Assembly (NCBI GenBank): GCA_021463505.1
Contig: JAJTYR010000015.1
Span: 2,968 to 66,967, forward strand
Source of the DNA: Burkholderiaceae bacterium
Lineage (GTDB): Bacteria > Pseudomonadota > Gammaproteobacteria > Burkholderiales > Burkholderiaceae_E
Direction: 5' to 3'
DNA: 64,000 nt
The notes below the pieces were generated by a model. That model did no database searches. It saw only the letters and a list, made by a program, of their open reading frames with translations, and was not told the origin of the DNA. Below are positions 1-14,800 of the stretch, in pieces. A program made the translations under genes and the position numbers. The number at the start of each line of letters is the position of its first letter. Positions within the stretch are counted from its first letter, which is position 1.

Positions 1-390
1 GAGCGCGAGCATTGCCGGCAGCGCTGTACGGTCGGCGTCGTCATACAGCCCGGCTTTCGCGCACGCATCGAATAGCGCCGCCAGGTCGGCAGGCACCGGC
101 ACGGCCGGCGGTTCCGGTATCGGCTCGGCCGCGATGGCGGCCGGGTAGCTGGCGAGCGCCCCGGCATGATCGACAGCCGGCGCGAACACTACGGCCACCG
201 GGTCCAAGTTCGGGAAGTGCAGTAGCCAGAGTGCAGCGCGTGCCGTAACGTCCGCAGGTGCCGTAACAGGCGTAACAAGCGTGCAAACCAATGCGGGCGC
301 GGGTTTCGCTGTTACGTCTGCGGTTTCGGCTGCCGTAACAGGCGTAACAGCGTGGCCTTCCAGCCGCGACAACAGTGCATCAAGCCCCAT
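1..390 (-). CDS. Hypothetical protein, N-terminal part only (runs off the left edge), with a V-T-rich repeat segment
   Basis: Own translation of the minus strand. The ATG at 390-388 overlaps the primase stop (ATGGGGCTTGA). Product: MGLDALLSRLEGHAVTPVTAAETADVTAKPAPALVCTLVTPVTAPADVTARAALWLLHFPNLDPVAVVFAPAVDHAGALASYPAAIAAEPIPEPP... The frame stays open to position 1. It is absent from the ORF track because no stop lies in the window. Confidence 0.5.
   Translation of the reverse strand, partial: MGLDALLSRLEGHAVTPVTAAETADVTAKPAPALVCTLVTPVTAPADVTARAALWLLHFPNLDPVAVVFAPAVDHAGALASYPAAIAAEPIPEPPAVPVPADLAALFDACAKAGLYDDADRTALPAMLAL
242..351. repeat. Repeat patch A: six GTAAC/GTTAC-centred motifs, including two identical 19-mers TGCCGTAACAGGCGTAACA (259-277 and 331-349)
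   Basis: Read directly from the sequence: GCCGTAACG 242-250; TGCCGTAACAGGCGTAACAAG 259-279; GCTGTTACGTC 308-318 (inverted); TGCCGTAACAGGCGTAACAGC 331-351. The patch lies immediately 3' of the primase-helicase gene. Confidence 0.85.
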
Positions 391-3286
391 CGTCGCCTCG
401 CAGCCTGTCGGCGTGGATCGCGTACAGGCGAACCAGACGCCCGCCGATGCGCTCGGGCTTCGAGCGTTCGCCGCTGCTCGCTGGCAGCGCGCCAACTTCC
501 TGCAAAGCGCCGAGCGCCCGCTTGAAGTCGAAACCCGACAGGGCTTCGCGCATCGCTGCGCCGTTGAACAGGTAGACGCGCCCGCCGGGCGTGTTGCGCC
601 ACCAGCCGGCCCGATTGATCCGCACGGCATCGCCGCCGCCTGCATCGGCATCCGAGAATCGGCTATCGCCGTGCCGCTCGATGAATTCGGCGACTCGCTC
701 GGGAATCTGCCGCCGCTCGTCGTTGCCACGGCCGCGCATCCCCTGCCACGCCCGGAACGCTTCGGCGGTCGCCTTGATCGCTTCGCCCTCGGGCCAGCCG
801 GTCAAGCCGTATTCGGTCGCCAGTTCACCGGCCAACGCCACCAGGGCGAAGCGCGCCGCCGCTCGCTTGTCCTGACCCTCGGCGCCGTCGGCCGCGAAGT
901 CGGGTAGTGGCTTGATGCGTTCCAGCAGTTCGGCCAGGTTGCGCGCGTCATGCGTCAGCCGATGCAGGAACGCCCGGCCCGCGTGTCCGTAGTGCGTCGC
1001 CGCCGCCCGCTTGATCGCGTCCGATAGCGCCGGCCCGTCGGCGAAGCCGTGCAACGTGTCCCATGCGCCGTATCGGCGCGCTGCCGGCACGTCCAACAGT
1101 CGCACGGCTTGGCCCGCCTTCGCCGCTCGCCCGCCCTCGGCCATTGCCGTTGCCAGCGCCCGCTCGCCGCTCGACAGCACCACGCAGCGCCAGCGGGTCA
1201 CGCTTCGCGCCGCGCCCGTTCGGCTCGCCCGTTGCTTGCCGCGCCCGTTGCCGAGCGCATAGACGATGGCCCCGACTTCGCGCGGGTCGCATTCGCTGAT
1301 TTCGTCCAGCGCCAGCAGGCAATCATTGAACAGCGCCGCCGCGCCCTCGATGCCGTTTGCCGTCGCCCGCCAGCTTCGCCGGTAGTTCGGCCCGCCCCAG
1401 GTCGCGCACGCGGCTTCAATCGCCGTTGTCTTGCCCGTCGACGAATCGCCGACCAGGTGAACGCCGCCGCCCTCGGCGTTGCAGCGCGCCAGCAGCGGCC
1501 CGGCGAACGATGCCGCAACTGCGAGCGTCAGCAGCGGATTACCCACGGCCCGCGCCGCAATGTCGGCTCGCCACCCTTCGAGCGTTCCGCCGCGCGTGTA
1601 CTCGTCATGCCCGCGTTCGCCGGATTGGAAGATCACGCCCGCGCCGGCCGGCCCGATCACTTCGTCGGGCAGCACGAACGACGCACCGCACCAGCCGACT
1701 TGCAGCGCGCAATGGACGCGCCGCTTCGGGGTCAGGGCTTGAAGGTATTGACCGAGCAGGCGATGCGCGTTCGGGTCGATCACCACGCCCATTGCCAGCA
1801 GCTCGCCGCGCAATTCCTCGCCCGATGCGCGCAGCAATTCCATCGGCATTGCCCACTCGCGCCTGCGCCCGTTCGTGTTCACGAACCGCAGCAGCCGGCC
1901 GAAGTTGCCTTCCCGTCCGTCATGCGTCACGGCTTCGACGTGCAGGGGTGAGCACACCCACTGCTCGATGAGCATCGGCGGATCGTCGGGCCTGCGACCG
2001 TGTTTCACTCCGAAGTACCAGACGCCCGGCCGGTACTTCCTGCCGTCGCTTTCCGCCCAATCGTCCAGGGCGACAAAGCGCGGCCGTTCGTCCACGCCCG
2101 GAATCGCGCCGGCTGTTACGCCTGTTACGGCAGCGGAATCGCCAGCCGTAACAGGGGAAACCGCGCCAGTGCTTGCTTGCACGGCTGTTACGGCTGTTAC
2201 GGCTGTTTCCGACGTTACGGCGGGCGATGCGGCCTCGCCGGCTTCCTCGCGGTCAGAATCGACGCTGGCGGGCCTATCGTCGCCGGATGCAACATCGGCC
2301 CTCGCCGATGCAATCGCGGCGTCTACGGCCCGTTTCACGGCTTCCCGGCCCCGGTGCGCGGCCATGTCGTTGAAGTCGGTCGCGCCCTCGGGCCGCTCGG
2401 CCCCGAAGTCGGGCACGGCCAGCGCCGCGCCAACGTCGCGCGCCGCCTCGACGGCGTGCGGGTCGGGTTCGCCGCTCGCCTTCAGCACGTCGGCAAGGAT
2501 CGCCAGCAGCGCGCCCGGATAGCGTTCCCGCATCGCTCGGGCCGCCGCCGCTAGCTGGCCCGCAGATAGCGCGGCAATGGCCGGATGGCCTGTCGCCTCA
2601 CGCGCCGATAGCGCGGTCGCCACACCCTCGGCGATCAGGATGCACAACCCCGCGCCGTCGTCGTCCGGAAGCGCCTGAGCGGCCCAATATCCGCCCGCCT
2701 TCGCCCCGCCTGCCAGTGCCGACTTGCGGCCGTCGCCGTCGATCATCTCGACAGTGGACAGCTTGCCGCCGATCTTCACGGGCGCGAGCAGGATTCGCCC
2801 GGCGAGTCGCTCGCCCTTCGCTTGCGGCTCGTACCCGATGATGCGCGCCACATCGGCGGCCTGCATCTCGCGTAGCGTCGCCACCGGCGCGACGCCTTTG
2901 CGGACAAGATAGGGATGATCCGCGCCGGCCGGCGTGCCCGCCGCCCACAGCGCCCGCGCCTTGCGTGCGGCCTCGGCTCGGCGCTTGGATTCGTCGGCCT
3001 CGCGCTGCGCCTTCATCGCCGCTACCCGCTCACGGTGGGCGGCTTCCTCGGCCGGCGTCAGCGTGCGGCCAACGTCTGCCCGCCACGTCTGCGAAAGCCC
3101 GGTGCGCCAGTCGCCGAATGCGCCGGCCGGGATGCCGTCGTCGTGCGCGATGTACCAGCCGGCATCATCGATGCGCTTGCCGTTCGTGCCGAAGCGCCGC
3201 AGCTTGCCGTCGGCCTCGATCACGTCGGGCGGGTTCAGCCCCGCCGCGCGCATCGCCTCGCGGAACTGTTCGGGCGCGTTACGCAT
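380..3286 (-). CDS. Toprim / DUF927 primase-helicase (P4-alpha-like replication protein)
   Basis: 975-aa ORF 380-3307. The N-terminus (DGKLRRFGTNGKRIDDAGWY...GAFGDWRTG) and the Toprim-like region (ILIAEGVATALS) resemble this family. A DUF927-type region carries Walker A GDSSTGKTT and Walker B-like LLALDEISE. ATG 3286 (MRNAPEQ) is preferred because AAGGGG lies upstream of it; ATG 3307 is the alternative. Confidence 0.85.
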   Translation of the reverse strand: MRNAPEQFREAMRAAGLNPPDVIEADGKLRRFGTNGKRIDDAGWYIAHDDGIPAGAFGDWRTGLSQTWRADVGRTLTPAEEAAHRERVAAMKAQREADESKRRAEAARKARALWAAGTPAGADHPYLVRKGVAPVATLREMQAADVARIIGYEPQAKGERLAGRILLAPVKIGGKLSTVEMIDGDGRKSALAGGAKAGGYWAAQALPDDDGAGLCILIAEGVATALSAREATGHPAIAALSAGQLAAAARAMRERYPGALLAILADVLKASGEPDPHAVEAARDVGAALAVPDFGAERPEGATDFNDMAAHRGREAVKRAVDAAIASARADVASGDDRPASVDSDREEAGEAASPAVTSETAVTAVTAVQASTGAVSPVTAGDSAAVTGVTAGAIPGVDERPRFVALDDWAESDGRKYRPGVWYFGVKHGRRPDDPPMLIEQWVCSPLHVEAVTHDGREGNFGRLLRFVNTNGRRREWAMPMELLRASGEELRGELLAMGVVIDPNAHRLLGQYLQALTPKRRVHCALQVGWCGASFVLPDEVIGPAGAGVIFQSGERGHDEYTRGGTLEGWRADIAARAVGNPLLTLAVAASFAGPLLARCNAEGGGVHLVGDSSTGKTTAIEAACATWGGPNYRRSWRATANGIEGAAALFNDCLLALDEISECDPREVGAIVYALGNGRGKQRASRTGAARSVTRWRCVVLSSGERALATAMAEGGRAAKAGQAVRLLDVPAARRYGAWDTLHGFADGPALSDAIKRAAATHYGHAGRAFLHRLTHDARNLAELLERIKPLPDFAADGAEGQDKRAAARFALVALAGELATEYGLTGWPEGEAIKATAEAFRAWQGMRGRGNDERRQIPERVAEFIERHGDSRFSDADAGGGDAVRINRAGWWRNTPGGRVYLFNGAAMREALSGFDFKRALGALQEVGALPASSGERSKPERIGGRLVRLYAIHADRLRGDDGA
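2112..2221. repeat. Repeat patch B: six GTTAC/GTAAC-centred motifs inside the primase-helicase linker. The segment 2112-2132 is the exact reverse complement of 331-351.
   Basis: Read directly from the sequence: GCTGTTACGCCTGTTACGGCA 2112-2132; GCCGTAACAGG 2145-2155; tandem GGCTGTTAC units 2182-2210; GACGTTACGGC 2211-2221. Confidence 0.85.
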
Positions 3287-3614
3287 CGTGCGCCCCTTCG
3301 CCGGCATCGCGCCGCTTGCGAGCTTGGTAGACGCTCAGGACTTCGTGCGCGAGCAGTCGCCAGCCCTTGCGCTCGGCCCCCGTCTTGTCCGTCCAGCTCG
3401 TCACCTCCAACGTGCCGGCGGCTGCGATGCTTGACCCTTTGTGCAGCCGCATCAAGCGCTCGCCGGCCGTCGGATCGAACACTGCAATCCCGACAAATAG
3501 CGACTCGGTGCCTGCGGCCACGCGCGCCGATGCGGTCCAGTAGCGATTGCCGTTTGATGCAGTGCGCTCGGTCGGCTCGCCGGTCAGCGGCCCGCTGATG
3601 ATCGCGTCGATCAT
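3279..3614 (-). CDS. Short single-stranded-DNA-binding (OB-fold) like protein
   Basis: The internal ATG at 3614 (MIDAIISGPLTGEPTERTASNGNRYWTASARV...GTLEVTSWTDKTGAERKGWRLLAHEVL) forms an ATGA overlap with the upstream ORF stop. The sequence pattern resembles short island or phage SSBs. The 203-aa ORF in the track is an over-extension. Confidence 0.55.
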   Translation of the reverse strand: MIDAIISGPLTGEPTERTASNGNRYWTASARVAAGTESLFVGIAVFDPTAGERLMRLHKGSSIAAAGTLEVTSWTDKTGAERKGWRLLAHEVLSVYQARKRRDAGEGAHDA

Positions 3615-4093
3615 TGGACGCTTCCCGATCCGCGGGCAATAGTTGCTGGATCGGAAACGATCAACGCATCCGGCAGCGTTTCGCCCGCTAGGCGCTTGAC
3701 GGCCACCACCGCCGCGAGAACGAACGTGCCGACAACCTGCGCCGCCTGGGATGATCGGGCTGAAGTGCCGTCCAGCTTGCGCCCGCATCGGTAGTCCATC
3801 AGGTAGCCGAAAGGACGAACCAGCGCAGGATGATCGAACATCATCAGTGCGATCTTCTTCGAGCGCGGCTTGCGCCCGCAGCATGGGCACCGACGGAAGG
3901 CAATGCAGAGTTCGCCATCTACCTCCGCAAGCGCGAAGTCAACATTCAGCGTGAGCCTGGGAAGCACGTCGCCGATGGGCGCGAACCGCGCCGCGCCAGC
4001 GTCAGGCGCGATAGAATCGGGGCTGCTTGAGGTAACTTCCGGGGTCGCGCGGTCGGTAGCTGCGCGGCCCTCGTCTTTTGTGGGGATCGTCAT
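3611..4093 (-). CDS. Hypothetical protein with a Cys cluster (RRCPCCGRK...DYRCGRK)
   Basis: 160-aa ORF with a strong RBS (GAGGGGG) 6-7 nt upstream of ATG 4093. It sits 10 nt downstream of alpA and is translationally coupled to the SSB-like gene. I recognise no family. Confidence 0.5.
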   Translation of the reverse strand: MTIPTKDEGRAATDRATPEVTSSSPDSIAPDAGAARFAPIGDVLPRLTLNVDFALAEVDGELCIAFRRCPCCGRKPRSKKIALMMFDHPALVRPFGYLMDYRCGRKLDGTSARSSQAAQVVGTFVLAAVVAVKRLAGETLPDALIVSDPATIARGSGSVQ

Positions 4094-4103
4094 TGCGGCC
4101 CCC

Positions 4104-4322
4104 TCAATTGCCGGCCTGCGCGATCAACGCGCGGATATCCTCGATGCGCCATGCCGTTGTGCGCGGCCCGATCTTCACCGGCTTGGGGTAGCGGCCCGAC
4201 TTGATGCCGCCCCACCAGGCGGACTTGCTGATCGGGACGATTGCGGGAACGGGCGGCTTCGCGCGCGGATTGCCGATGATTTGCGGCAGGCGCAGGAAGC
4301 CAGTTTCGGGAAGTGTGTGCAT
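4104..4322 (-). CDS. alpA: AlpA-family phage/island transcriptional regulator (excisionase-like HTH)
   Basis: The 72-aa product MHTLPETGFLRLPQIIG...PISKSAWWGGIKSGRYPKPVKIGPRTTAWRIEDIRALI matches the typical AlpA/Prophage CP4-57 regulatory signature. Confidence 0.85.
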   Translation of the reverse strand: MHTLPETGFLRLPQIIGNPRAKPPVPAIVPISKSAWWGGIKSGRYPKPVKIGPRTTAWRIEDIRALIAQAGN

Positions 4323-4382
4323 TGTGGATTGCTCGCGTCCGAGTTGAGACGCTGCAATCCTCGGCCGATCATCTCACCGCGT

Positions 4383-4417
4383 GGCCGAATTCGGGAATGA
4401 CGAAACCGAATTCGGCC
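4383..4417. promoter_or_regulatory. Perfect 12-bp inverted repeat GGCCGAATTCGG-N11-CCGAATTCGGCC. This amounts to two copies of the 10-bp palindrome CCGAATTCGG, located upstream of alpA.
   Basis: Read directly. It lies in the 130-bp gap between the 237-aa ORF stop (4453) and the alpA start (4322). Confidence 0.6.
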
Positions 4418-4452
4418 GGTCGGCCAAGCCCGGCGCGGCTTTGCGACCAATT

Positions 4453-5166
4453 CTAGCGGGCCGTCGGCGCGCTCTTTTCGATCATGTCGAACGCCTCGCG
4501 CAGCTTGGCGCGCAAAGTGTCATCGGAAACACTCAAGCCGAGTTCCTCGGCGTCGCGCCGCACTTCGCCAAGCTTTTCGATCCTGCTCGCCTTCGGGTCG
4601 ATGCCATACCCGCGAACCGCCAGTACCGCGATTATTCGCAGAAGCGTATTCCGCTCAGTTGTGCCAGTTGTGCCTGCACGTTCGGTTGTTCGGGGCGCTC
4701 GCCCGAAAGTCTCCCGGTCGAGCCTTTCGACCTCTTCGCGCAGCATGAACAAATGCCCGATGTCGATTTGGATGGGCGGATCGAATTCACATTGCCACCA
4801 GGCACCCCGATCAAATCGCATCGCGCTATGCATTTCGAGCGGGAAGGCGTCCGGCATCTCACAGAACCGCAGGTCGTCGATTTCGATTTCGTAGAAACCG
4901 GCCGGCATGTCTGTAGTAGTCCGGGCCTTCCATTTGTCGAATTCGGCACGCAGCGCCTCGGCTCCCTCTTTGTCCAAGTCGTCCAAGTCTGACTCGTCGA
5001 TCTCTGGCTCATCGACTATCCGCACCATATGCTTCGCCTTCACCATTCCGTAGGCGTTCGCGCATATTTGCGCCCGATCCCGCGAGCCCATGTGAAGCAG
5101 GTCGTGCACCGTGCATTCCCACCGTTCAGCCAGCTCGGTCAGCCGGTAGTAGTCCCGTTCAACCAT
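4453..5166 (-). CDS. Hypothetical protein (237 aa) in the lowest-GC part of the island. It has an N-terminal HTH-like segment, an acidic middle region and a C-terminal HTH-like segment.
   Basis: The ORF has an RBS AGAGGGG upstream of ATG 5166. The N-terminus is YYRLTELAERWECTVHDLLHMG. An acidic tract reads DEPEIDESDLDDLDKEGAE. The C-terminus reads ERNTLLRIIAVLAVRGYGIDPKASRIEKLGEVRRDAEELGLSVSDDTLRAKLREA. I recognise no family. Confidence 0.6.
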   Translation of the reverse strand: MVERDYYRLTELAERWECTVHDLLHMGSRDRAQICANAYGMVKAKHMVRIVDEPEIDESDLDDLDKEGAEALRAEFDKWKARTTTDMPAGFYEIEIDDLRFCEMPDAFPLEMHSAMRFDRGAWWQCEFDPPIQIDIGHLFMLREEVERLDRETFGRAPRTTERAGTTGTTERNTLLRIIAVLAVRGYGIDPKASRIEKLGEVRRDAEELGLSVSDDTLRAKLREAFDMIEKSAPTAR

Positions 5167-5259
5167 CGCGCGCCCCTCTGCGCTCCTTGATCGGGAAGCC
5201 GCGCCAGCCGGGCAAGGGAACCCGGTTTTCGCCCCGTCGGGCTAGGCGCGGCTAAGTCG

Positions 5260-6474
5260 TCAAGCCACGTCGCCGTGTAGCTGGATCACGTCGGCCCCGG
5301 CCTTTTGCTTGTCCAGCCAGTCGGCCCATTGCTGCATCATCTTGCGCCGCTCGGGCAGGTGCGCCGTGCGGTTGTACGCACGTCCGTTCGGGTCGCGTAC
5401 CGCATGGGCTAGCTGATGCTCGATCAGGTCGGGGCGAACGCCGAGCACTTCATCGAGGATCGTTCGCGCCACGGCCCGGAAGCCATGCCCGCTCATTTCT
5501 TCCTTCGGGATGCCGAGCCGGCGCATCGCAGCAAGGATCGCGTTGTCGCTCATCGGCCGGCCGTTCGTGCGCGCGCCGGGAAAGACGAATTCGCCATGCC
5601 CGGTCAGCTTGTGAAGCTCGCGCAGGATCGCAACGGCTTGCGTTGCCAGCGGGACGATATGCGCCGTGTCCGTCTTGGTCACGGTATAGCGCCACTCGGC
5701 CGCGTCCAGGTCGATATCGGCCCATCGGGCCTTGCGTAACTCGCCGGGTCGCACGAACACCAGCGGGGCGAGCCGCAGCGCGCATTGAACCGTGAAGGTG
5801 CCTTGATAGCCATCGAGCGCCCGCAGGATTTCGGCGAGTCGCTTCGGTTCGGTCACGGCCGCGAAGTGTTCGCCCTTGACGGGCGGCAGCGCGCCGCGAA
5901 GGTCGCCCGACGGGTCACGCGCGGCCCGGCCGGTCGCAATCGCATAGCGCAAAATCTGCCCGCAGTTTCCGAGCGCCCGATGCGCGGTTTCCAGTGCCCC
6001 GCGCGCCTCGATCCGGCGCAGGACGGCCAGCAGCTCCGGCGCGGTCACTTCCGCTACCGGCCGGCCCCCGACCCAGGGGAACACGTCCCGCTCAAGCCGC
6101 CGGATGATCCGGTCGCCGTGCGCCGCGTTCCAGGTCGGGGCCAACTTACCGTACCACTCGCGGGCCACTACCTCGAAACTGTTCGCCGCCCGGTCGGTGC
6201 GCGCCGTCTTGGTCGCCTTCCGATGCTCGCTTGGGTCGATCCCGTCGGCCAGCAGCTTGCGGGCTTCGTCGCGCCGTTCGCGGGCCTTCGCCAGCCCGAT
6301 ATCGGGGTAGGTGCCCATCGACAGCAGCTTGGCCTTACCCCCAAGCCGGTATCGGAACCGCCACCACTTACCCCCGCTCGGCGTCACTTCCAAGTACAGC
6401 CCGCGTTCATCGAACAGCCGGGCGGGCTTCGCGCCGGGCTTGGCGTTGCGGATCGCCGTGTCGGTCAGCGGCAT
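5260..6474 (-). CDS. int: Tyrosine-type site-specific integrase, P4-like (DUF4102 N-terminal arm-binding domain)
   Basis: 404 aa. The N-terminus MPLTDTAIRNAKPGAKPARLFDERGLYLEVTPSGGKWWRFRYRLGGKAKLLSMGTYP is typical of the family. The catalytic region contains HGFR...HQLAH...AYNR-type motifs. Confidence 0.95.
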   Translation of the reverse strand: MPLTDTAIRNAKPGAKPARLFDERGLYLEVTPSGGKWWRFRYRLGGKAKLLSMGTYPDIGLAKARERRDEARKLLADGIDPSEHRKATKTARTDRAANSFEVVAREWYGKLAPTWNAAHGDRIIRRLERDVFPWVGGRPVAEVTAPELLAVLRRIEARGALETAHRALGNCGQILRYAIATGRAARDPSGDLRGALPPVKGEHFAAVTEPKRLAEILRALDGYQGTFTVQCALRLAPLVFVRPGELRKARWADIDLDAAEWRYTVTKTDTAHIVPLATQAVAILRELHKLTGHGEFVFPGARTNGRPMSDNAILAAMRRLGIPKEEMSGHGFRAVARTILDEVLGVRPDLIEHQLAHAVRDPNGRAYNRTAHLPERRKMMQQWADWLDKQKAGADVIQLHGDVA

Positions 6475-6490
6475 AGGGGTAAGTCCAAAT

Positions 6491-6575
6491 TGGGGTAACT
6501 CTCAGGCGAGTTTCCGAGTTACCCCAGAAAGTTACCCCGCCCGAGTGCCGGATGGTACTGGACGATGTTACCCCA
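6491..6575. repeat. Four copies of the 8-9-bp motif GTTACCCC(A/G), three direct and one inverted, between the int start and the ssrA 3' end. These are candidate arm-type recombinase or Xis binding sites.
   Basis: Read directly: TGGGGTAAC 6491-6499 (inverted); GTTACCCCA 6518-6526; GTTACCCCG 6531-6539; GTTACCCCA 6567-6575. A partial CTTACCCC also lies just before the int ATG. Confidence 0.6.
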
Positions 6576-6582
6576 AGTCGGA

Positions 6583-6621
6583 CGAAAAAACCAAAAGAAA
6601 ACCCGCACTTAGGCGGGTTCT
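6583..6621 (-). terminator. Rho-independent terminator downstream of ssrA
   Basis: The minus strand reads GAACCCGCCTAAGTGCGGGTTTTCTTTTGGTTTTTTCG. This is a 7-bp GC stem followed by a U-rich tract, about 35 nt past the tmRNA CCA end. Confidence 0.75.
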
Positions 6622-6653
6622 CGGACTCCAGCGGATGTTGCTGGATGGTCTAA

Positions 6654-7016
6654 TGGTGGAGCCGGCGGGAATCGAACCCGCGTCCGCAAGTCCTCTACGA
6701 CCAGTTCTACATGCTTAGTCGATCTATTTGGATCTCGATGCAGGCTTGGCCGGTCGACAGGCCGACTTGCATCCAGTCACCTTGGTTCTAGCTCCGCGAC
6801 AAGTGACCCGGCGCGGCACGATCCGACATGAATGACGCTGCTGTTCCTTGCGGAACCCGGGCTATCGGCGACCCGGTGCAGCGGCTCAGGCCTTAAGCGG
6901 CCAGAGCGAAACGCTCGTCGTTGGCGTTTGTGGTTTTGCCAATGGATTTACGAGGAAAAGGCGCCTCGGCATGCCCTGTGCCGCTTCGCTACCCACGTCG
7001 AAACCAGGTCGGCCCC
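6654..7016 (-). ncRNA. ssrA: tmRNA (SsrA), 363 nt. The tag reading frame is 6893-6925 and encodes ANDERFALAA-stop.
   Basis: The reverse complement starts GGGGCCGACCTGGTTTCGACGTGGGTAGCGAAGCGGCAC and ends GGACGCGGGTTCGATTCCCGCCGGCTCCACCA. An internal GCCAACGACGAGCGTTTCGCTCTGGCCGCTTAA frame gives the tag. The acceptor and T-arm architecture is canonical. Confidence 0.97.
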
Positions 7017-8144: not shown

Positions 8145-9823
8145 ACGCTCCCGAATCGCTGCGCAAGGATTCGCTCTACCTTGCCGAGACCCACGAGGTC
8201 TTCAATGTCGCGCGCGACCTCGTCGACTACAACCTCTATCTGCAGGACGCGGCGTTGCAGGAGGCCGTGCGACGCGAGGGCGCGGGTTGGGCACACGACG
8301 ACCTGGCCGCTTTCGGCGCGATGCTCGGCGCAGCCGACTACCTCGAACTCGGGGTGCTCGCCAACCGCCATCCGCCGGAGCTCGACACGCACGACCGCTT
8401 CGGCAACCGCGCGGACCTGGTGCGCTTTCACCCTGCGTATCACACGCTGATGAAAACCTCGATCGAACACGGGCTGCACGCTTCGCCGTGGTCCGATCCG
8501 GGGAGCGGAGCGCATGTGGCGCGTGCCGCGCGCGTGTACCTGCACTCGCAGGTCGAGGCCGGCCACCAGTGTCCGGTCACGATGACGTTCGCGGCAGTGC
8601 CGTCGCTGCGCACCACGCCGCGCCTTGCGAGCCTCTGGGAGCCGAAGATCACCGCGCGCGTCTACGATCCGCGCAACGTGCCCGACGCCGACAAGCGCGG
8701 CCTGACGATCGGCATGGCGATGACCGAGAAGCAGGGCGGCTCGGACGTGCGCGCCAACACCACGCGCGCGTTCCCGGTCGGCGCCGCGCAGGGTCCGGGC
8801 GAGGCCTACGAACTCGTCGGCCACAAGTACTTCGTGTCGGCGCCGATGTGCGATGCGTTCCTCGCGCTGGCGCAGGCGCCCGGCGGGCTGTCGTGCTTCC
8901 TGATGCCGCGCTGGCGCCCCGACGGCAGCCGCAACGCGCTGCAGGTGCTGCGCCTGAAGCGCAAGATGGGCAACGTCTCGAATGCGTCGAGCGAGACCGA
9001 ATTGCGTGGCGCGCTCGCGTGGATGGTGGGTGAGGAGGGGCGCGGCGTGCGCACGATCATCGAGATGGTGGCGATGACGCGCTTCGACTGCATGGTCGGT
9101 TCGGCCTCCGGGCAGCGTGCGGCCGTCGCGCAGGCGCTACACCACTGCTCGTTGCGTTCGGTGTTCGGCAAGGTGCTGAACGAGCAGCCGCTGATGCGCA
9201 ACGTGCTGGCCGACCTGGCGCTCGAGAGCGAGGGCTCGGTGGCGCTCACGATGCGCATCGCGCGTGCACTCGACCATCGCGACGACGAGCACGAAGACCT
9301 GCTGGTGCGCCTGTGCACCGCGGTGGGCAAGTACTGGATCTGCAAGCGCACGCCCGGCCATGCGTACGAGTCGATGGAGTGCATCGGCGGCAGCGGCGTG
9401 ATGGAGGACAGCCCGTTCCCGCGGCTGTTTCGCGAGTCGCCGGTCAATGCGATCTGGGAAGGCAGCGGCAACGTGCAGTGCCTGGACGTGCTGCGCGCGA
9501 TGCAGAAGACGCCGGCGGTCGTCGGCGCATTCTTCGCCGAGCTGGCGAAGTCGCGCGGTGCCAATGCCGCGCTCGACCGCTACGTGGCGGCACTGCAGAA
9601 GGAGTTCGGCGACCTGGCTGATCTGGAATATCGCGCGCGCGACGTCGTCGACCGGATGGCGCTCGCGCTGCAGGCGGCGCTGCTGGTGCAGCACGCGCCG
9701 GCCGCGGTCGCCGACGCGTTCTGCGCATCGCGCCTGGCCGCCAGCGGGCATCACAACTACGGTGCGCTGCCGCGCGGGGTCGATTGCGCGGCGATCGTCG
9801 CGCGGGCCACGCCCAGGGCCTGA
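8141..9823 (+). CDS. aidB: AidB-like acyl-CoA dehydrogenase
   Basis: 560 aa, collinear with my recollection of E. coli AidB (VFNVARDLVDYNLYL..., GMAMTEKQGGSDVRANTT, LSCFLMPRW, GNVSNASSE, MTRFDC, MECIGGSGVMEDSPFPRLFRESPVNAIWEGSGNVQCLDVLR). Confidence 0.9.
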   Translation: MNAPESLRKDSLYLAETHEVFNVARDLVDYNLYLQDAALQEAVRREGAGWAHDDLAAFGAMLGAADYLELGVLANRHPPELDTHDRFGNRADLVRFHPAYHTLMKTSIEHGLHASPWSDPGSGAHVARAARVYLHSQVEAGHQCPVTMTFAAVPSLRTTPRLASLWEPKITARVYDPRNVPDADKRGLTIGMAMTEKQGGSDVRANTTRAFPVGAAQGPGEAYELVGHKYFVSAPMCDAFLALAQAPGGLSCFLMPRWRPDGSRNALQVLRLKRKMGNVSNASSETELRGALAWMVGEEGRGVRTIIEMVAMTRFDCMVGSASGQRAAVAQALHHCSLRSVFGKVLNEQPLMRNVLADLALESEGSVALTMRIARALDHRDDEHEDLLVRLCTAVGKYWICKRTPGHAYESMECIGGSGVMEDSPFPRLFRESPVNAIWEGSGNVQCLDVLRAMQKTPAVVGAFFAELAKSRGANAALDRYVAALQKEFGDLADLEYRARDVVDRMALALQAALLVQHAPAAVADAFCASRLAASGHHNYGALPRGVDCAAIVARATPRA

Positions 9824-9850
9824 ACGGTCGCGCGCTCGCCGACCGGAGCC

Positions 9851-12448
9851 TCAGGCGGGCTGCGGGACGGCTGCAGCGCGCGCCAGCGCGACGCGACTGG
9901 CGATATGTGCCAGCGCCTCGTCGATCTGGTCGATCAGGATCAGGCAGAGGTCGCCGGCCTCGAGCCCGCCGAGCGCCGTGTCGATCGCCAGGAATTCACC
10001 GCGGATTTCGTGCACGCGGGTGACGCGCGCTGCACCGGCCAGCCCCTGCCGCAGCAGCGCAACCACTTCGCCGTCGCGGCGGCCGCGCTGGCACTGGTCT
10101 TCGTAGAGGATGACCTCGTCGAAGGCCGTGCCGAGGATCTCGGACTGGCGGCGGATGTCCTCGTCGCGCCGGTCACCTGCGCCGCTGATCACGACGAGGC
10201 GGCGTCGGGCCGGCATCGCGTCGACCGCGCGCGTGAGCGCGGCGATCGCGTCGGGGTTGTGGCCGTAGTCGGCGATGACGGTTGCGCCGCGGTGGTCGAA
10301 CACGTTGAAGCGCCCGGGCACGGTGCTCGCGTCGCTCACGAAACTGCGCATGCCCGCGCGCACCGCGTGCCAGTCGAGCCCCAGCGCCCAGGCCGCGCCC
10401 ACCGCAGCCATTGCGTTCTCCACCTGGAAGGCGATCGTGCCGCGTCGCGTGATCGCGACGTCGACCAGCGCGATGCGTCGCTCGGAGTCGCCCTGCGCAG
10501 CGACGATCGCGTCGCCGTCGACGTAGACCACCCGATGTCCTTTCGCGCGATGCGTGGCCATCAGCGGCAATTGCACGTCGGCCGCGAAGAAGGTGACCGA
10601 GCCCGGGCACGCGGCGGCCATCTTCGCGACGATCGGATCGGCTGCGTTGAGAACGGCCATGCCGTCGGGTGCCACGTTCTGCACGATGACACGCTTGAGC
10701 ACCGCGAGATCTTCGACGGTGGTGATGAAGTTCAGGCCCAGGTGGTCGCCGACGCCGATGTTGGTGACCACCGCCACCTTGCATCGATCGAAGCCCAGGC
10801 CCTCGCGCAGCATGCCGCCGCGCGCGGTCTCGAAGACGGCGGCATCGACGTGCGGATGGATCAGCACGTTGCGCGCGCTGCGCGGTCCGCTGCAGTCGCC
10901 GGTGTCGATGCACTGGCCGTTGACATAGACGCCGTCGGTGTTGGTCATGCCGACCCGTGCCCCGGTGCCCGCCAGCAGGTGGGCGATCAGCCGTACGGTG
11001 GTGGTCTTGCCGTTGGTGCCGGTGACCGCAATCACCGGAATGCGGCCATCGTCGCCGTCGGCGAACAGCGTACCGATGATCGCTTCGCCCACCGGGCGGC
11101 CCTTGCCGTACGATGGCGCGACGTGCATGCGCAGACCGGGCGCCGCATTGACCTCGACGATCCCGCCCCCCTGTTCCTCGAGCGGCCGGCCGATGTTTTC
11201 GCAGACGACGTCGACGCCGCAGATGTCGAGACCGATGGTCTGGGCGGCCTCGATCGCGCGTGCCGCGAGCTCGGGGTGCACATCGTCGGTGACGTCGGTG
11301 GCCGTGCCGCCGGTGCTCAGGTTCGCGTTGTGGCGCAGCAGCACGCGTGCGCCGCGCGGCGGGATGGACTGCGTGCCGTAGCCTTGCGTGGCGAGCTGGG
11401 CGAGCGCGACCTCGTCCAGGCGGATGCGGGTGAGCGGGGTCGCGTGGCCCTCGCCGCGCAGCGGATCCAGGTTCACTTCGTCGACCAGTTCGTGGACCGT
11501 GTGCATGCCGTCGCCGATCACGTGCGCGGGCTCGCGCCGGGCTGCAGCCACCAGCTGGCCGCCGACCACCAGTGCGCGGAAGTCGTGCCCGGGAATGAAG
11601 CGCTCGACCAGGATGTCGGAGCTGATCTCGTTGGCTGCCGCCCAGGCCGCCTCGAGGTGTTGGCGCGTCTGCACGTTCACCGACACGCCCTTGCCCTGGT
11701 TACCGTCGCGCGGCTTGACCACGACCGGGCTGCCGAGCGCCTCGAATGCGGCGATCGCCTCGTCGAGGTCGCCGACCGCACGCCCCTCGGGCACCGGGAC
11801 ACCGACCGCCGACAGCAACTGCTTGGTGAGTTCCTTGTCCTGCGCAATCTGCTCGGCCACCGCACTGGTGGCGTCGATTTCGGCGGCCTGGATGCGCCGC
11901 TGCCGGCTGCCCCAGCCGAATTGCACCAGGCTGCCTTCGGTGAGGCGTCGATAGGGGATGCCAAGCGCGACTGCAGCCTGGACGATGGCGCCGGTACTCG
12001 GTCCCAGGCGCACCTCCTCGTCCATGTCGCGCAGCCGCGCCAGCGCATCGCTGAGGTCGAAGCTGGCGTCGTCGAGCGCCGAGCGACACAGGGCCGCGGC
12101 CAGTTCGAGCGCGAAGCGGCCCACGCACTCCTCGGTGTACTCGACGGCCAACTGGTAGACGCCGGGCTCGGTGGTCGGGGTCGTGCGGGAAAAGCTCACC
12201 GGGCAGCCGGCCTGCGCCTGCAGTGCAAGCGCCGCCGCCGTGAGCACGTGGGCAATCGATCCGCCCTGGCACTGGCCGAGCGGCTGCAGCGGCCCGATCG
12301 CGGGGAAACGCGCGCGCAGGCGCGCTTCGAAGCCCGGCAGCAGGTCGATGCAGCGTTCGGGCTCGTCACAGGTGACGATGGCTTCGATCGCCGTGCGCCG
12401 TGACCAGAGATTCGGGCCGCGCAGCGCGCGGATGCGTGAGATGTCCAT
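9851..12448 (-). CDS. cphA: Cyanophycin synthetase (full-length, 865 aa)
   Basis: The N-terminus MDISRIRALRGPNLWS is typical. The ATP-grasp core contains VVKPRDGNQGKGV. The Mur-ligase module has an intact P-loop VTGTNGKTTT (about 11007-11036) plus ETARGG, DYGHNPDA and GAGDRRDED motifs. Confidence 0.95.
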   Translation of the reverse strand: MDISRIRALRGPNLWSRRTAIEAIVTCDEPERCIDLLPGFEARLRARFPAIGPLQPLGQCQGGSIAHVLTAAALALQAQAGCPVSFSRTTPTTEPGVYQLAVEYTEECVGRFALELAAALCRSALDDASFDLSDALARLRDMDEEVRLGPSTGAIVQAAVALGIPYRRLTEGSLVQFGWGSRQRRIQAAEIDATSAVAEQIAQDKELTKQLLSAVGVPVPEGRAVGDLDEAIAAFEALGSPVVVKPRDGNQGKGVSVNVQTRQHLEAAWAAANEISSDILVERFIPGHDFRALVVGGQLVAAARREPAHVIGDGMHTVHELVDEVNLDPLRGEGHATPLTRIRLDEVALAQLATQGYGTQSIPPRGARVLLRHNANLSTGGTATDVTDDVHPELAARAIEAAQTIGLDICGVDVVCENIGRPLEEQGGGIVEVNAAPGLRMHVAPSYGKGRPVGEAIIGTLFADGDDGRIPVIAVTGTNGKTTTVRLIAHLLAGTGARVGMTNTDGVYVNGQCIDTGDCSGPRSARNVLIHPHVDAAVFETARGGMLREGLGFDRCKVAVVTNIGVGDHLGLNFITTVEDLAVLKRVIVQNVAPDGMAVLNAADPIVAKMAAACPGSVTFFAADVQLPLMATHRAKGHRVVYVDGDAIVAAQGDSERRIALVDVAITRRGTIAFQVENAMAAVGAAWALGLDWHAVRAGMRSFVSDASTVPGRFNVFDHRGATVIADYGHNPDAIAALTRAVDAMPARRRLVVISGAGDRRDEDIRRQSEILGTAFDEVILYEDQCQRGRRDGEVVALLRQGLAGAARVTRVHEIRGEFLAIDTALGGLEAGDLCLILIDQIDEALAHIASRVALARAAAVPQPA

Positions 12449-12484
12449 GACGGGCTGGCCGGTTGGGCGTGTCGCGAGGAGCGG

Positions 12485-14800
12485 TCAGGCAGCGACGGTT
12501 TCGTTCGCCTCGACTTGCACCGTGTACAGCGTCTCGATACCGGTGCGGATCAGGTCGGCACTGATGTCCAGTGCCCAGGCTGCGGCAATCGCGGCAAGCA
12601 GGTCGTCCAGACGGCGCCCGCCTGCGTCGCCGACTGCGAGGCGCGACAGTTCCGCCACCGGAAGGATGCGCTCGCCGGTGGCCAGCACGATCCGCCCGCC
12701 GCGAACGACCACTGCACGCCGTCCGTTGGCGAGGTGAGCATCGACGACCTGACTGCCGGCTCCGGTGTCGTAGAACAGCACGTCGCCATCGCACAGCGAC
12801 GCCATCTTCGCGACCAGGGGATCGGCGGCGTCGAGCACGGCGGCGCCCCCCGGCAGCACGACGTCGACCTGGGTGCGCAGCAACGCGTACATCTGCTCGG
12901 CGCTCGCGATGTCGAACTGCGGAATCGCCGCCTCCGGATCGATGCCGGTGACCACGCCAACCTGGCAGCGGTCGTAGGCGAGACCCTCGGAGGCGATCGC
13001 CAGGCCGTCGTTCTCGATCACGGCTGCCTCGACGCGCCGGTTCATCAGCAGCCGGCGAGCGGGTTCCCACCGGGCGCGATCGCCGTCGGCGAGGCGACGT
13101 CCGCCGACGTACAGGCCTTCGCCACAGGCCAGGCCGGCACATCGTCCGGTCAGGCGGATGAATTCGGCCAACAGTCGCGCGATCGCGGTGCCACTGCGTG
13201 TTCCGGCGATGCCGACGATTGGAATGCGACCCGAGTCGCCGGCGGGGAACAGGTTGTTCACGATCGCCGCGCCCACCGGCTGGGCGGTGCCGGCAGCCGG
13301 CTTCAGGTGCATCAGCAGCCCGGGGCCGGCGTTCACTTCGACGATCGCGCCGCGCTGCTCGTACAGCGATCGGGAGATGTCCTCGACCACCAGATCGACG
13401 CCGGCGATGTCCAGGCCGACCACGTCGGTGGCGACCGCCACCGCGTGGGCGACGCTCGGATGCACCTGACTGGTGACGTCGATCGCGACGTTGCCGTTGC
13501 GCTGGATCAGCAGGCGCTCGCCGGGGGGCGGAATCGACTCGGCGTCGTAGCCCTGACGCGCGAGTTCCATGCGTGCCGAGGAGTCGATGCGCACGAAGTT
13601 CAGCGGACGGTCTTCGGTGCTGCCGCGACTCGGATCGCTGTTCAACTGCAGGTCGATCAGTTCGGTGACGCTGGAACGGCCGTCGCCGAGGACGTACGCG
13701 GGTTCACCACGCGCGGCGGCGACCATTCGGCCGCCGACCACCAGCAACCGGTGCTCCTTGCCCTGCACGAAGCGCTCGACGATGACGCCGCTGCCTTCCT
13801 CGATCGCGACCGCCCAGGCCGCCTCGACTTCCTGGCGGGACATGACGTTGGTGAATACGCCGCGGCCATGATTGCCGTCGTAGGGTTTCACGACCACCGG
13901 TACGCCGATCTCGCAGGCCGCCTCCCAGGCATCCTCGGCGCTGCGGGCGAGCCGACCCTCGGGGACCGGCACGCCGCAGGCCTGCAGCAACTGCTTGGTG
14001 AGGTCCTTGTCGCGCGAGATACCTTCGGCGATCGCGCTGGTGCGATCGGATTCCGCGGTCCAGATGCGATGCTGGCGGGCGCCGTAACCGAGTTGTACCA
14101 GGTTGCCGTCATTCAGGCGGATTGCCGGGATGGAGCGCTCGTCGGCGGCATCGACGATCGACAGCGTGCTCGGGCCGAGATAGTGTTCGTCTGACAGCGC
14201 GTGCAACTCCTCGATCGTGCCTGCGACGTCGCAGGGCCGGTCTTCGATCGCGGCCATGACCAGGTCACGCGCCGCGTACAGCGCCGCCAGCGCCACTTCT
14301 TCCTGGAACGCGCGGATGACCACGCGGTAGACCCCGCGCCGGGACGCTTCGCGGGCGCGACCGAAACCGACCGGCATGCCGGCGAGATTCTGGAGTTCGA
14401 GCGCGACGTGCTCCAGGATGTGTGCCGGCCAGGTGCCCTCGTGCAACCGGCGCACGAACCCGCCGCGCTCGCCGTAGCTGCAGTGATGTTCGACCAGCGT
14501 CGGCAACCAGGACACCAGCCGCTCGGGAAACCCGGGAATCAGGTTGGAAGGAAAGTCTTCCAGGGCGCCGATGTCGACGACCGCCTCGAGCACCGGCCGG
14601 TAGGTCCAGCGACCCGGCCCGCGGATGAACCGGTACTCGAGGATCTCGATGTCCTTCCGGGGGAGGGCGGTTACGGTGGATCCCTGCGGACGGGGTGCGG
14701 GCATGTAAGGTTCCGGAAGTTGCTTCGCTGTTGAACGCAGCAGGCCGGCTTCGGTTGACGGCAGGCCGGCGCCGGCATCGCCGGCGTGCCGCGGGACCAC
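12485..14800 (-). CDS. Cyanophycin synthetase paralog (CphA'-type) with a degenerate, C-terminally truncated Mur-ligase module
   Basis: The CphA N-domain (EYRFIRGPGRWTYRPVLEAVVD) and the ATP-grasp core (VVKPYDGNHGRGV) are present. The P-loop position reads GIAGTRSGTA (13184-13216), and the protein ends soon after AAWALDI. The start is uncertain: either 14800, or ATG 14704 (MPAPRPQG). Confidence 0.85.
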   Translation of the reverse strand: MVPRHAGDAGAGLPSTEAGLLRSTAKQLPEPYMPAPRPQGSTVTALPRKDIEILEYRFIRGPGRWTYRPVLEAVVDIGALEDFPSNLIPGFPERLVSWLPTLVEHHCSYGERGGFVRRLHEGTWPAHILEHVALELQNLAGMPVGFGRAREASRRGVYRVVIRAFQEEVALAALYAARDLVMAAIEDRPCDVAGTIEELHALSDEHYLGPSTLSIVDAADERSIPAIRLNDGNLVQLGYGARQHRIWTAESDRTSAIAEGISRDKDLTKQLLQACGVPVPEGRLARSAEDAWEAACEIGVPVVVKPYDGNHGRGVFTNVMSRQEVEAAWAVAIEEGSGVIVERFVQGKEHRLLVVGGRMVAAARGEPAYVLGDGRSSVTELIDLQLNSDPSRGSTEDRPLNFVRIDSSARMELARQGYDAESIPPPGERLLIQRNGNVAIDVTSQVHPSVAHAVAVATDVVGLDIAGVDLVVEDISRSLYEQRGAIVEVNAGPGLLMHLKPAAGTAQPVGAAIVNNLFPAGDSGRIPIVGIAGTRSGTAIARLLAEFIRLTGRCAGLACGEGLYVGGRRLADGDRARWEPARRLLMNRRVEAAVIENDGLAIASEGLAYDRCQVGVVTGIDPEAAIPQFDIASAEQMYALLRTQVDVVLPGGAAVLDAADPLVAKMASLCDGDVLFYDTGAGSQVVDAHLANGRRAVVVRGGRIVLATGERILPVAELSRLAVGDAGGRRLDDLLAAIAAAWALDISADLIRTGIETLYTVQVEANETVAA

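Follow-up and report, generated by a model that had tools for sequence, protein, structure and literature searches.

A candidate replication origin split between the linker of a primase-helicase and the following reading frame in a tmRNA-integrated island of a Burkholderiaceae bacterium

P4 needs two sites for its replication, ori and crr, both in cis. In the Staphylococcus aureus pathogenicity islands (SaPIs), the C-terminal winged helix of the Rep protein binds penta- or hexanucleotide iterons, present in 6-12 copies immediately 3' of rep, and the two halves of the iteron set point in opposite ways around an A/T-rich center (PMC9371898, PMC7581432). Phage-inducible chromosomal islands (PICIs) of Gram-negative bacteria share this arrangement, with a pri-rep-ori segment that functions as a replicon (PMC6092414). 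For an origin located inside the gene of its own initiator there is the precedent of ori-lambda in gene O (PMC6022878). Here we analyze a stretch of 64,000 nucleotides (68.9% G+C) from a Burkholderiaceae bacterium (assembly GCA_021463505.1, contig JAJTYR010000015.1, positions 2,968 to 66,967, hereafter the window), in which an island carries a gene for a primase-helicase (Pri-Rep) and two patches of GTAAC/GTTAC repeats, one within that gene and one just past its end. An earlier note, made from the sequence alone, had taken these patches for a candidate island origin. From the comparison with homologous islands we conclude that the two patches probably make up the replication origin of the island, one half each, with iterons of the PICI/SaPI type, split in the manner of P4 ori and crr and recognized by Pri-Rep.

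A recount in the window bore out what the earlier note had described of the repeats. The pentamers GTAAC and GTTAC occur 30 times, 12 of them within 242-351 and 2112-2221 (six per patch), and a scan of the 64 kb revealed no 110-bp stretch outside both patches that contains six. The 21-mer at 331-351 returns at 2112-2132 as its exact reverse complement, there is a direct second copy of its first 19 nt at 259, and the repeated units of the second patch, GGCTGTTAC, start at 2111, 2183 and 2192. Enrichment of the motif, checked within the window, was also clear, as the 8-mer CGTAACAG is found nine times in the 64 kb, against a mean of 0.55 and a maximum of 3 in dinucleotide-preserving shuffles, with every copy inside the two patches and none in the rest of the window. 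Both patches are translated from the minus strand, one into the linker between the two domains of the primase-helicase and the other into the N-terminus of the downstream open reading frame (ORF), as the note had also read them. What it missed is that the patches belong to a single imperfect inverted repeat, of which they make up the full-length arms (233-351 and 2112-2230). Detected by a repeat search, this inverted repeat is 119 nt long and 79% complementary, with 1760 nt between its arms; an ungapped arm-to-arm comparison gave 88 identical bases out of 110.

We refer to these arms as module A (downstream half) and module B (intragenic half). Module A starts 28 nt past the stop codon of the primase-helicase gene, within the N-terminus of the next ORF, and has GTAAC cores starting at 245, 263, 272, 335 and 344, an inverted GTTAC at 311, and the constant elements GTGCAA (281-286) and GCGGGTTTCGC (299-309). 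Module B, which codes for linker residues ~360-399 (PAVTSETAVTAVTAVQASTGAVSPVTAGDSAAVTGVTAG), has GTTAC cores starting at 2115, 2124, 2187, 2196 and 2214, an inverted GTAAC at 2148, and the constant TTGCAC at 2177-2182. The spacings between cores mirror each other exactly (18, 9, 39, 24 and 9 nt in module A; 9, 24, 39, 9 and 18 nt in module B). The iteron consensus is (G)N-GTAACA-(G), and a module of ~95-110 bp consists of a doublet with 9 bp between copies, the constant GTGCAAGCC...GCGGGTTTCGC, one inverted iteron and a second doublet, to which the modules of the window add an extra outer single copy.

A protein search returned 889 homologues of Pri-Rep, and 80 genomic loci from Beta- and Gammaproteobacteria were fetched for comparison. 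Counted from the stop codon, the core positions of the window are shared by the GTWAC cores of about 20 of these loci (protein identity 56-77%, G+C 50-67%): -1839, -1821, -1812, -1773, -1749 and -1740 on the linker side and +31, +40, +64, +103, +112 and +130 on the downstream side. Other loci, which lack GTWAC, have GTATCA, GTTCCA, GTTTCA or GTTGCA in these places. Each island always has the identical core in both modules, in inverted orientation, which defines the classes GTAACA, GTATCA, GTTCCA, GTTTCA and GTTGCA. In about 50 of 78 loci a linker hexamer doubled at 9-bp spacing recurs downstream as its doubled reverse complement, whereas sharing of doubled hexamers in direct orientation was essentially nil among the same 78 loci. 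The modules of 33 loci could be aligned without gaps as two N-GTnnCA units, GT(G/A)CAAGCC, ~15 nt, GCGGGTTTCGC, one inverted iteron, ~15 nt and two further N-GTnnCA units, with the base before GT (position -1) covarying across all copies and both modules. Canonical cores are kept equally in the two modules (152/165 in each).

The comparative data place the constraint on the modules at the level of DNA, and not of the peptide, because islands of the GTATCA class encode unrelated peptides in their two modules, EVSEVS...EVSGVS in the linker and DTPDTP...DTPDTP in the downstream ORF. In addition, the valine codons of the linker Val-Thr (V-T) pairs in GTWAC islands are GTA in 71 cases, GTT in 17, GTC in one and GTG in none (A or T as third base in 88 of 89), whereas GTG and GTC dominate among the valine codons elsewhere in the same genes; in the window, GTA or GTT account for 7 of 8 valine codons in the patch versus 9 of 50 in the rest of the gene (Fisher p = 2.6e-4). 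The alignment of homologous islands agrees with this, as the module (~90 nt) has a mean pairwise identity of 0.55-0.77 versus a background of 0.28-0.35 in the flanking linker DNA. Class-specific peptides, valine codon bias and the difference in identity between module and linker thus uphold the proposal, made in the earlier note, of selection at the DNA level.

The class of the iterons is matched by residues in the C-terminal domain of Pri-Rep. Mutual information (MI) with iteron class, which has a possible maximum of 1.48 bits, was calculated for 600 alignment columns covering the helicase and the C-terminal region; MI over 15-residue windows was uninformative, and a per-column analysis was used instead. 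Residues 958 (MI 1.45) and 951 (MI 1.10), encoded in the window by 434-436 (L958) and 455-457 (P951), were the top two of the 600 columns. Residue 958 is L, T, V, S or P in 22/22 GTWAC loci, G in 22/23 GTATC loci and K in 9/9 GTTCC loci, whereas residue 951 is P in 18/22, F in 21/23, and T or P, respectively. Residue 953 is R in the GTWAC and GTATC loci and S, N or T in the GTTCC loci. This rule is valid in both the split and the contiguous architectures described below, and also in pairs of close relatives of unlike class (L057/L068, L029/L030 and L012/L014). On a neighbor-joining tree of the helicase core (aa 425-940), Fitch parsimony counted at least 19 changes of class and 16 changes of the residue-958 group, implying that the association does not derive from one inherited event. 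Because the repeats and a few residues of the DNA-binding tail change together across dozens of islands, the repeats are most likely Pri-Rep's own binding sites. The joint switching of the cores in both modules and of two wing residues supports the earlier assignment of the repeats as putative iterons of the adjacent primase-helicase.

In the linker modules of three loci (L004, L005 and L014), GTAACA iterons are mixed with relic GTATCA/GATACC, and the wing is already of the GTWAC type (P..L), whereas their sister L012 has GTATCA with an F..G wing; these hybrids look like a specificity switch in progress. The constant element GT(G/A)CAAGCC-N15-GCGGGTTTCGC (281-309 and 2154-2182 in the window) stands between the first doublet and the inverted iteron, is common to all classes and is translated as VQASN in the linker; its binding partner could be a host factor, or some part of Pri-Rep that does not vary. 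A hairpin or cruciform in the module center (GCAAGCC / GGCTT.GC) was considered and discarded, as RNAalifold on 66 modules gave -2.2 kcal/mol and paired only the trivially complementary iteron flanks. In locus L062, three 7-mers resembling GACGTAACA form a third cluster ~1340 nt ahead of the start of the selected primase-helicase ORF; this cluster may represent an additional iteron set, or else an artifact of the assembly or of a frameshift.

Pri-Rep comprises a Toprim_3 primase domain (aa 223-322), a linker (aa 337-399), a DUF927 helicase domain (aa 425-704; Pfam E 3e-100) and a C-terminal winged helix (aa ~885-975). The full AlphaFold2 (AF2) model has a mean predicted local distance difference test score (pLDDT) of 76, and the linker, with a pLDDT of 23-37, is predicted to be disordered; as modeled, it is a protein segment that would tolerate the embedded module B. 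Phmmer searches against PDB matched SaPIbov1 Rep (8tch, 9e-17) and Cch (5dgk, 4e-11), and Foldseek with the whole model gave the same two structures (2.8e-18 and 1e-17, respectively) over ~580 columns, with target-normalized template modeling (TM) scores of 0.64-0.70; the Toprim part of the model matches DnaG primases. Pri-Rep is a P4-alpha-like Toprim primase fused to a self-loading helicase of the SaPIbov1-Rep/Cch type. The secondary structure of the C-terminal part of the AF2 model (E901-906, E909-914, H916-922, H928-937, E950-954 and E957-965) places residues 950-965 (KPERIGGRLVRLYAIH) in a beta-hairpin preceded by another hairpin and two helices, that is, in a winged-helix topology. Modeled in isolation (pLDDT 80.6, predicted TM score 0.73), this domain had as its best Foldseek matches the C-terminal part of SaPIbov1 Rep (8tch, TMq 0.62-0.65, E 2e-3), the oriT-bound winged-helix protein TcpK (5vfx) and Cch; the origin-binding domain of P4 alpha was absent from its fold matches. 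The C-terminal winged helix is the predicted iteron-recognition domain.

The modules occur in three architectures within the family. The split form, with one module in the linker and one past the stop codon, is present in at least 47 loci including the window. In the contiguous form (14 loci, among them L023, L024, L029 and L030) both modules are adjacent after the stop codon, ~35 bp apart and inside the N-terminus of the downstream ORF, with the same relative order and orientation as in the split form, and the linker is without a module. In the classical form, represented by L054 and by distant relatives on viral contigs (L083, L088 and L089; 40-46% identity), the iterons (GTGACA, GGGGTTACA, TGTCCCAAC and GGGAACA) stand right past the stop codon. 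Among these, L054, L083 and L088 have a layout of doublets and inverted singles, and L054 and L083 correspond to the classical PICI form, with non-coding iteron sets (plainly non-coding in L054) around an A/T-rich spacer. The arrangement of the window is thus one end of a continuum, equivalent to a contiguous origin with 1.76 kb of helicase-coding DNA between its halves.

According to this model, the C-terminal winged helix of Pri-Rep would recognize the iterons of both modules, one origin half lying at the canonical PICI/SaPI position 28 nt past the stop codon and the other 1.76 kb upstream, in linker codons. Once the island is excised, Pri-Rep would occupy both modules, probably with the DNA between them looped, and load as oppositely oriented hexamers, and its own primase would prime synthesis. 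Binding by Pri-Rep, origin firing, looping, helicase loading and the need for both modules are inferred. Some observations weigh against a split origin. No A/T-rich unwinding element was found between or beside the split modules, where G+C drops just 4-8% at the outer doublets, and this missing element is the main gap in the origin model. SaPI and PICI iteron sets lie within about 100-200 bp, and the documented mechanism is not one in which two hexamers load 1.76 kb from each other. The assignment of loci as split itself used class agreement as a criterion, although no locus was found with two well-populated modules of different class. Finally, the wing and module A are ~80-200 bp apart, so that co-transfer by recombination could partly explain their association, although module B, at 1.7 kb from the wing, matches the class too.

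Other explanations of the repeats fare worse against the comparative data. That the patches are V-T-rich low-complexity linkers arisen by duplication, with no function as DNA, would fit a conserved linker motif (DVTxVTxVQ) in which V373 and V376 are invariant. It does not fit the differing peptides of the GTATCA class, the synonymous positions fixed in nearly all linker V-T codons, the nucleotide spacing that stays mirrored across homologues or the predicted disorder of the linker, and we regard it as already refuted by these sequence comparisons. Virtually no credence can be given either to inverted repeats acting as recombination sites that invert the 1.76-kb segment, or being remnants of transposon terminal repeats: although a 119-nt inverted repeat does bound a discrete segment, flipping it would break the reading frame of the helicase, what lies between the arms is in every homologue the conserved helicase core, Pfam searches on the window proteins found no adjacent invertase or transposase, and in some relatives the arms are adjacent with nothing between them. 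The inverted orientation and the strict covariation of cores between arms would also be expected if the arms base-paired, as RNA or single-stranded DNA, in a long-range stem around the helicase-coding segment, with compensatory changes. This is highly improbable, as the covariation is limited to the iterons (outside them, complementarity is 0.57 within loci and 0.53 across loci), the five or six copies of an arm all change to one and the same core, something that pairing in a stem would not call for, there is covariation of the cores with protein residues, and no conserved structure was found within the module by RNAalifold. That same excess outside the iterons, small though significant (Wilcoxon p = 0.005), led us to reject strong gene conversion or long-range pairing of the arms; the arms of the window itself reach 0.69 within the locus versus 0.56 across loci, and occasional homogenization between arms is possible on these figures.

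Two further alternatives accept the repeats as protein-binding sites. The iterons could be bound by another island protein, for instance the product of the downstream ORF, which always overlaps module A, or of a small upstream ORF; we find this very unlikely, given that the two most class-informative columns of Pri-Rep sit in its wing, that islands of one class do not share conserved C-termini of the downstream ORF, and that homologous Rep proteins bind their own iterons (PMC9371898). Unlikely, but with more in its favor, is an origin formed by module A alone, with module B as a regulatory Pri-Rep site (an autorepression roadblock, or handcuffing for copy control) dispensable for initiation. 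Module A is at the canonical PICI/SaPI ori position (PMC9371898, PMC6092414), each module already contains iterons of both orientations, an A/T-rich region between the modules was not found, and relatives with both modules downstream need none in the linker. On the other hand, both modules are equally preserved, the relatives with adjacent modules have one module of type B and one of type A, no more and no fewer, with relative order and orientation unchanged, as would be expected if the two together formed the functional unit, and crr of P4 is annotated as 'cis required region'.

A more elaborate version of the split-origin model, which we put forward only as a tentative possibility, is that the origin is dual-coded: the linker would double as an origin half, and looping by Pri-Rep would couple initiation with the shut-off of its own transcription, acting as a copy-number brake. 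The wing code, formed by residue 958 (G, K or hydrophobic) and residue 951 (F, P or T), would track bases 3-4 of GTnnCA, and would have been rewritten at least a dozen times, with ~12 sites in two genes changing in step. Were this so, the DVTxVTxVQ peptide would be a by-product of the DNA sites and not a protein motif.

The island is integrated at the tmRNA gene, and the region analyzed is its integrase-proximal end, where all genes are on the minus strand; the remaining part of the island extends past the left end of the window. The coordinates of the features are collected in Table 1. The int-alpA RNA stands directly downstream of the integrase gene and upstream of an ORF at 4453-5166. The ATG of the downstream ORF, at 390, gives an 11-nt overlap with the end of the upstream Pri-Rep gene in the same direction; its N-terminus, MGLDALLSRLE, is conserved, and residues ~13-52 are encoded by module A. 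Homologues of this ORF begin with MGLDALLxRLE, continue with the module-encoded segment and end in alternative non-homologous C-termini, some of them Cys-rich (CxxC), so that it looks like a mosaic gene built around the origin. No Pfam family was assigned to the downstream ORF, to the small upstream ORFs or to an antisense ORF at 281-907. An exact-protein lookup of the primase-helicase of the window gave no record, and megablast of positions 1-6700 against phage genomes gave no match.

Table 1. Features of the integrase-proximal end of the island (window coordinates).
Feature	Position	Strand	Basis
Downstream ORF, partial (runs off the window)	1..390	-	ORF call; no Pfam family
Module A, downstream half	233..351	none	Inverted-repeat arm; same offsets in homologues; ungapped module alignment
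Primase-helicase (Pri-Rep) gene, 975 aa	380..3307	-	Pfam, PDB sequence matches, AF2 model, Foldseek
C-terminal winged-helix domain coding region (aa ~885-975)	383..655	-	AF2 secondary structure, Foldseek
Wing beta-hairpin (aa 950-965, KPERIGGRLVRLYAIH)	413..460	-	Carries class-correlated residues
Interdomain linker coding region (aa 337-399)	2111..2299	-	AF2, predicted disordered
Module B, intragenic half	2112..2230	none	Inverted-repeat arm; conserved offsets -1839 to -1740 from stop; Val codon bias
AlpA	4104-4322	-	Pfam
int-alpA RNA	5185-5252	-	Rfam RF02996, 74.5 bits, full length
P4-type integrase	5260-6474	-	Pfam
tmRNA	6654-7016	-	RNA gene annotation

In the closest genome locus (L017, 77% identity; 9600-14764), pri-rep and the downstream ORF are followed by ~2.5 kb of unassigned ORFs and then by chromosomal MlaE/ABC-transporter genes. 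Because chromosomal genes resume at that distance, the island would be small, roughly 10 kb, as judged from this locus, and no capsid, terminase or conjugation genes were recognizable in it.

Between the start of the integrase gene and the 3' end of the tmRNA there are four copies of GTTACCCC, one of them inverted (6493-6574), which are probably arm-type sites of the integrase. The earlier note had linked them to the patches through a common GTTAC core, a connection that did not hold: in other islands the repeats at this position are GGGAACA, CGGGCTAGC, GTTGGTA, GGGGGCAAC and others, which vary independently of iteron class. A link between the origin iterons and GTTACCCC was therefore rejected, the letters GTTAC alone being common to both.

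What appears to be new here is a probable Rep-iteron origin of PICI/SaPI type in a split, fully dual-coded form, one half being located in the linker of the initiator. The PICI/SaPI layout has so far been described as invariant (two sets, A/T-rich center, 3' of rep), and the split coding variant resembles P4 ori/crr. The family also provides a replicated correspondence between the wing of a winged helix and the putative DNA site of that wing, of two residues versus two bases in five or more classes. What looks like a conserved 'protein motif' of a disordered linker can in fact reflect DNA sites that overlap it, which has a bearing on the annotation of DUF927 primase-helicases and on how linker conservation is read. 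Origin and specificity class would become predictable for many small islands integrated at tmRNA or tRNA genes in Beta- and Gammaproteobacteria, and such class prediction may be useful for incompatibility, for helper relationships and for the building of orthogonal replicons.

Among the closest known replicons, P4 offers a parallel for the bipartite arrangement, and its annotation bears out the ori/crr analogy drawn in the earlier note. There, crr (4291-4590), alpha (4636-6969) and the ori repeats (9310-9413) are annotated with opposite strand signs for the repeats of the two sites; crr lies 46 bp 3' of alpha, with type-1 repeats in the order + + - - + and the first pair 9 bp apart, whereas ori is found beyond the opposite end of alpha, at a distance of 4.7 kb, and has its repeats in the order - - - + - -. 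As in our island, the clusters are inverted, one just 3' of the gene and the other kilobases off, with direct and inverted copies mixed. The N-terminal Toprim primase is homologous (aa 104-332, 29% identity, E 5e-14), and the island also has a P4-type integrase and an AlpA/Vis-like gene. No significant similarity to P4 alpha was detected outside the primase domain, either in the helicase or in the C-terminal domain. The alpha helicase is of the SF3/D5 type, whereas that of Pri-Rep is DUF927/Cch-like by fold. Moreover, the P4 iterons, TGTTCACC, occupy DNA that is non-coding or poor in ORFs, and P4 ori is outside alpha, whereas the second cluster is here inside the gene. The type-1 doublet of P4 (L081), TGTTCACacTGTTCACC at 4314-4330, has the 9-bp spacing and resembles the reverse complement of the iterons described here (CTGTTACGcCTGTTACGG); this may be a coincidence, because the origin-binding domains are without detectable similarity.

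In lambda, the iterons fall in the stretch of O that separates its two domains. Our locus is like ori-lambda in that iterons are inside the coding sequence of the initiator, module B being in the linker between the primase and helicase domains. It differs in that O belongs to an unrelated family of initiators and is not a helicase, and in that all the lambda iterons and the A/T-rich region are contiguous in O, whereas here just one of two inverted modules is intragenic.

The likeness to SaPIs and PICIs (SaPIbov1 Rep 8tch, EcCICFT073) extends to the DUF927 self-loading helicase with a C-terminal winged helix that matches SaPIbov1 Rep, to short iterons of 5-7 bp in two sets of opposite orientation, one of them straight after the stop codon (six cores starting 28-31 nt past it in module A, and likewise in homologues), and to an island context of int-alpA with one direction of transcription (PMC6092414). 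Unlike in those islands, the two iteron sets of our locus do not flank a short A/T-rich region, but are 1.76 kb apart in coding DNA; both are translated, one of them inside the interdomain linker of the initiator itself; and the internal grammar of each set is fixed, its constant central element being common to the specificity classes.

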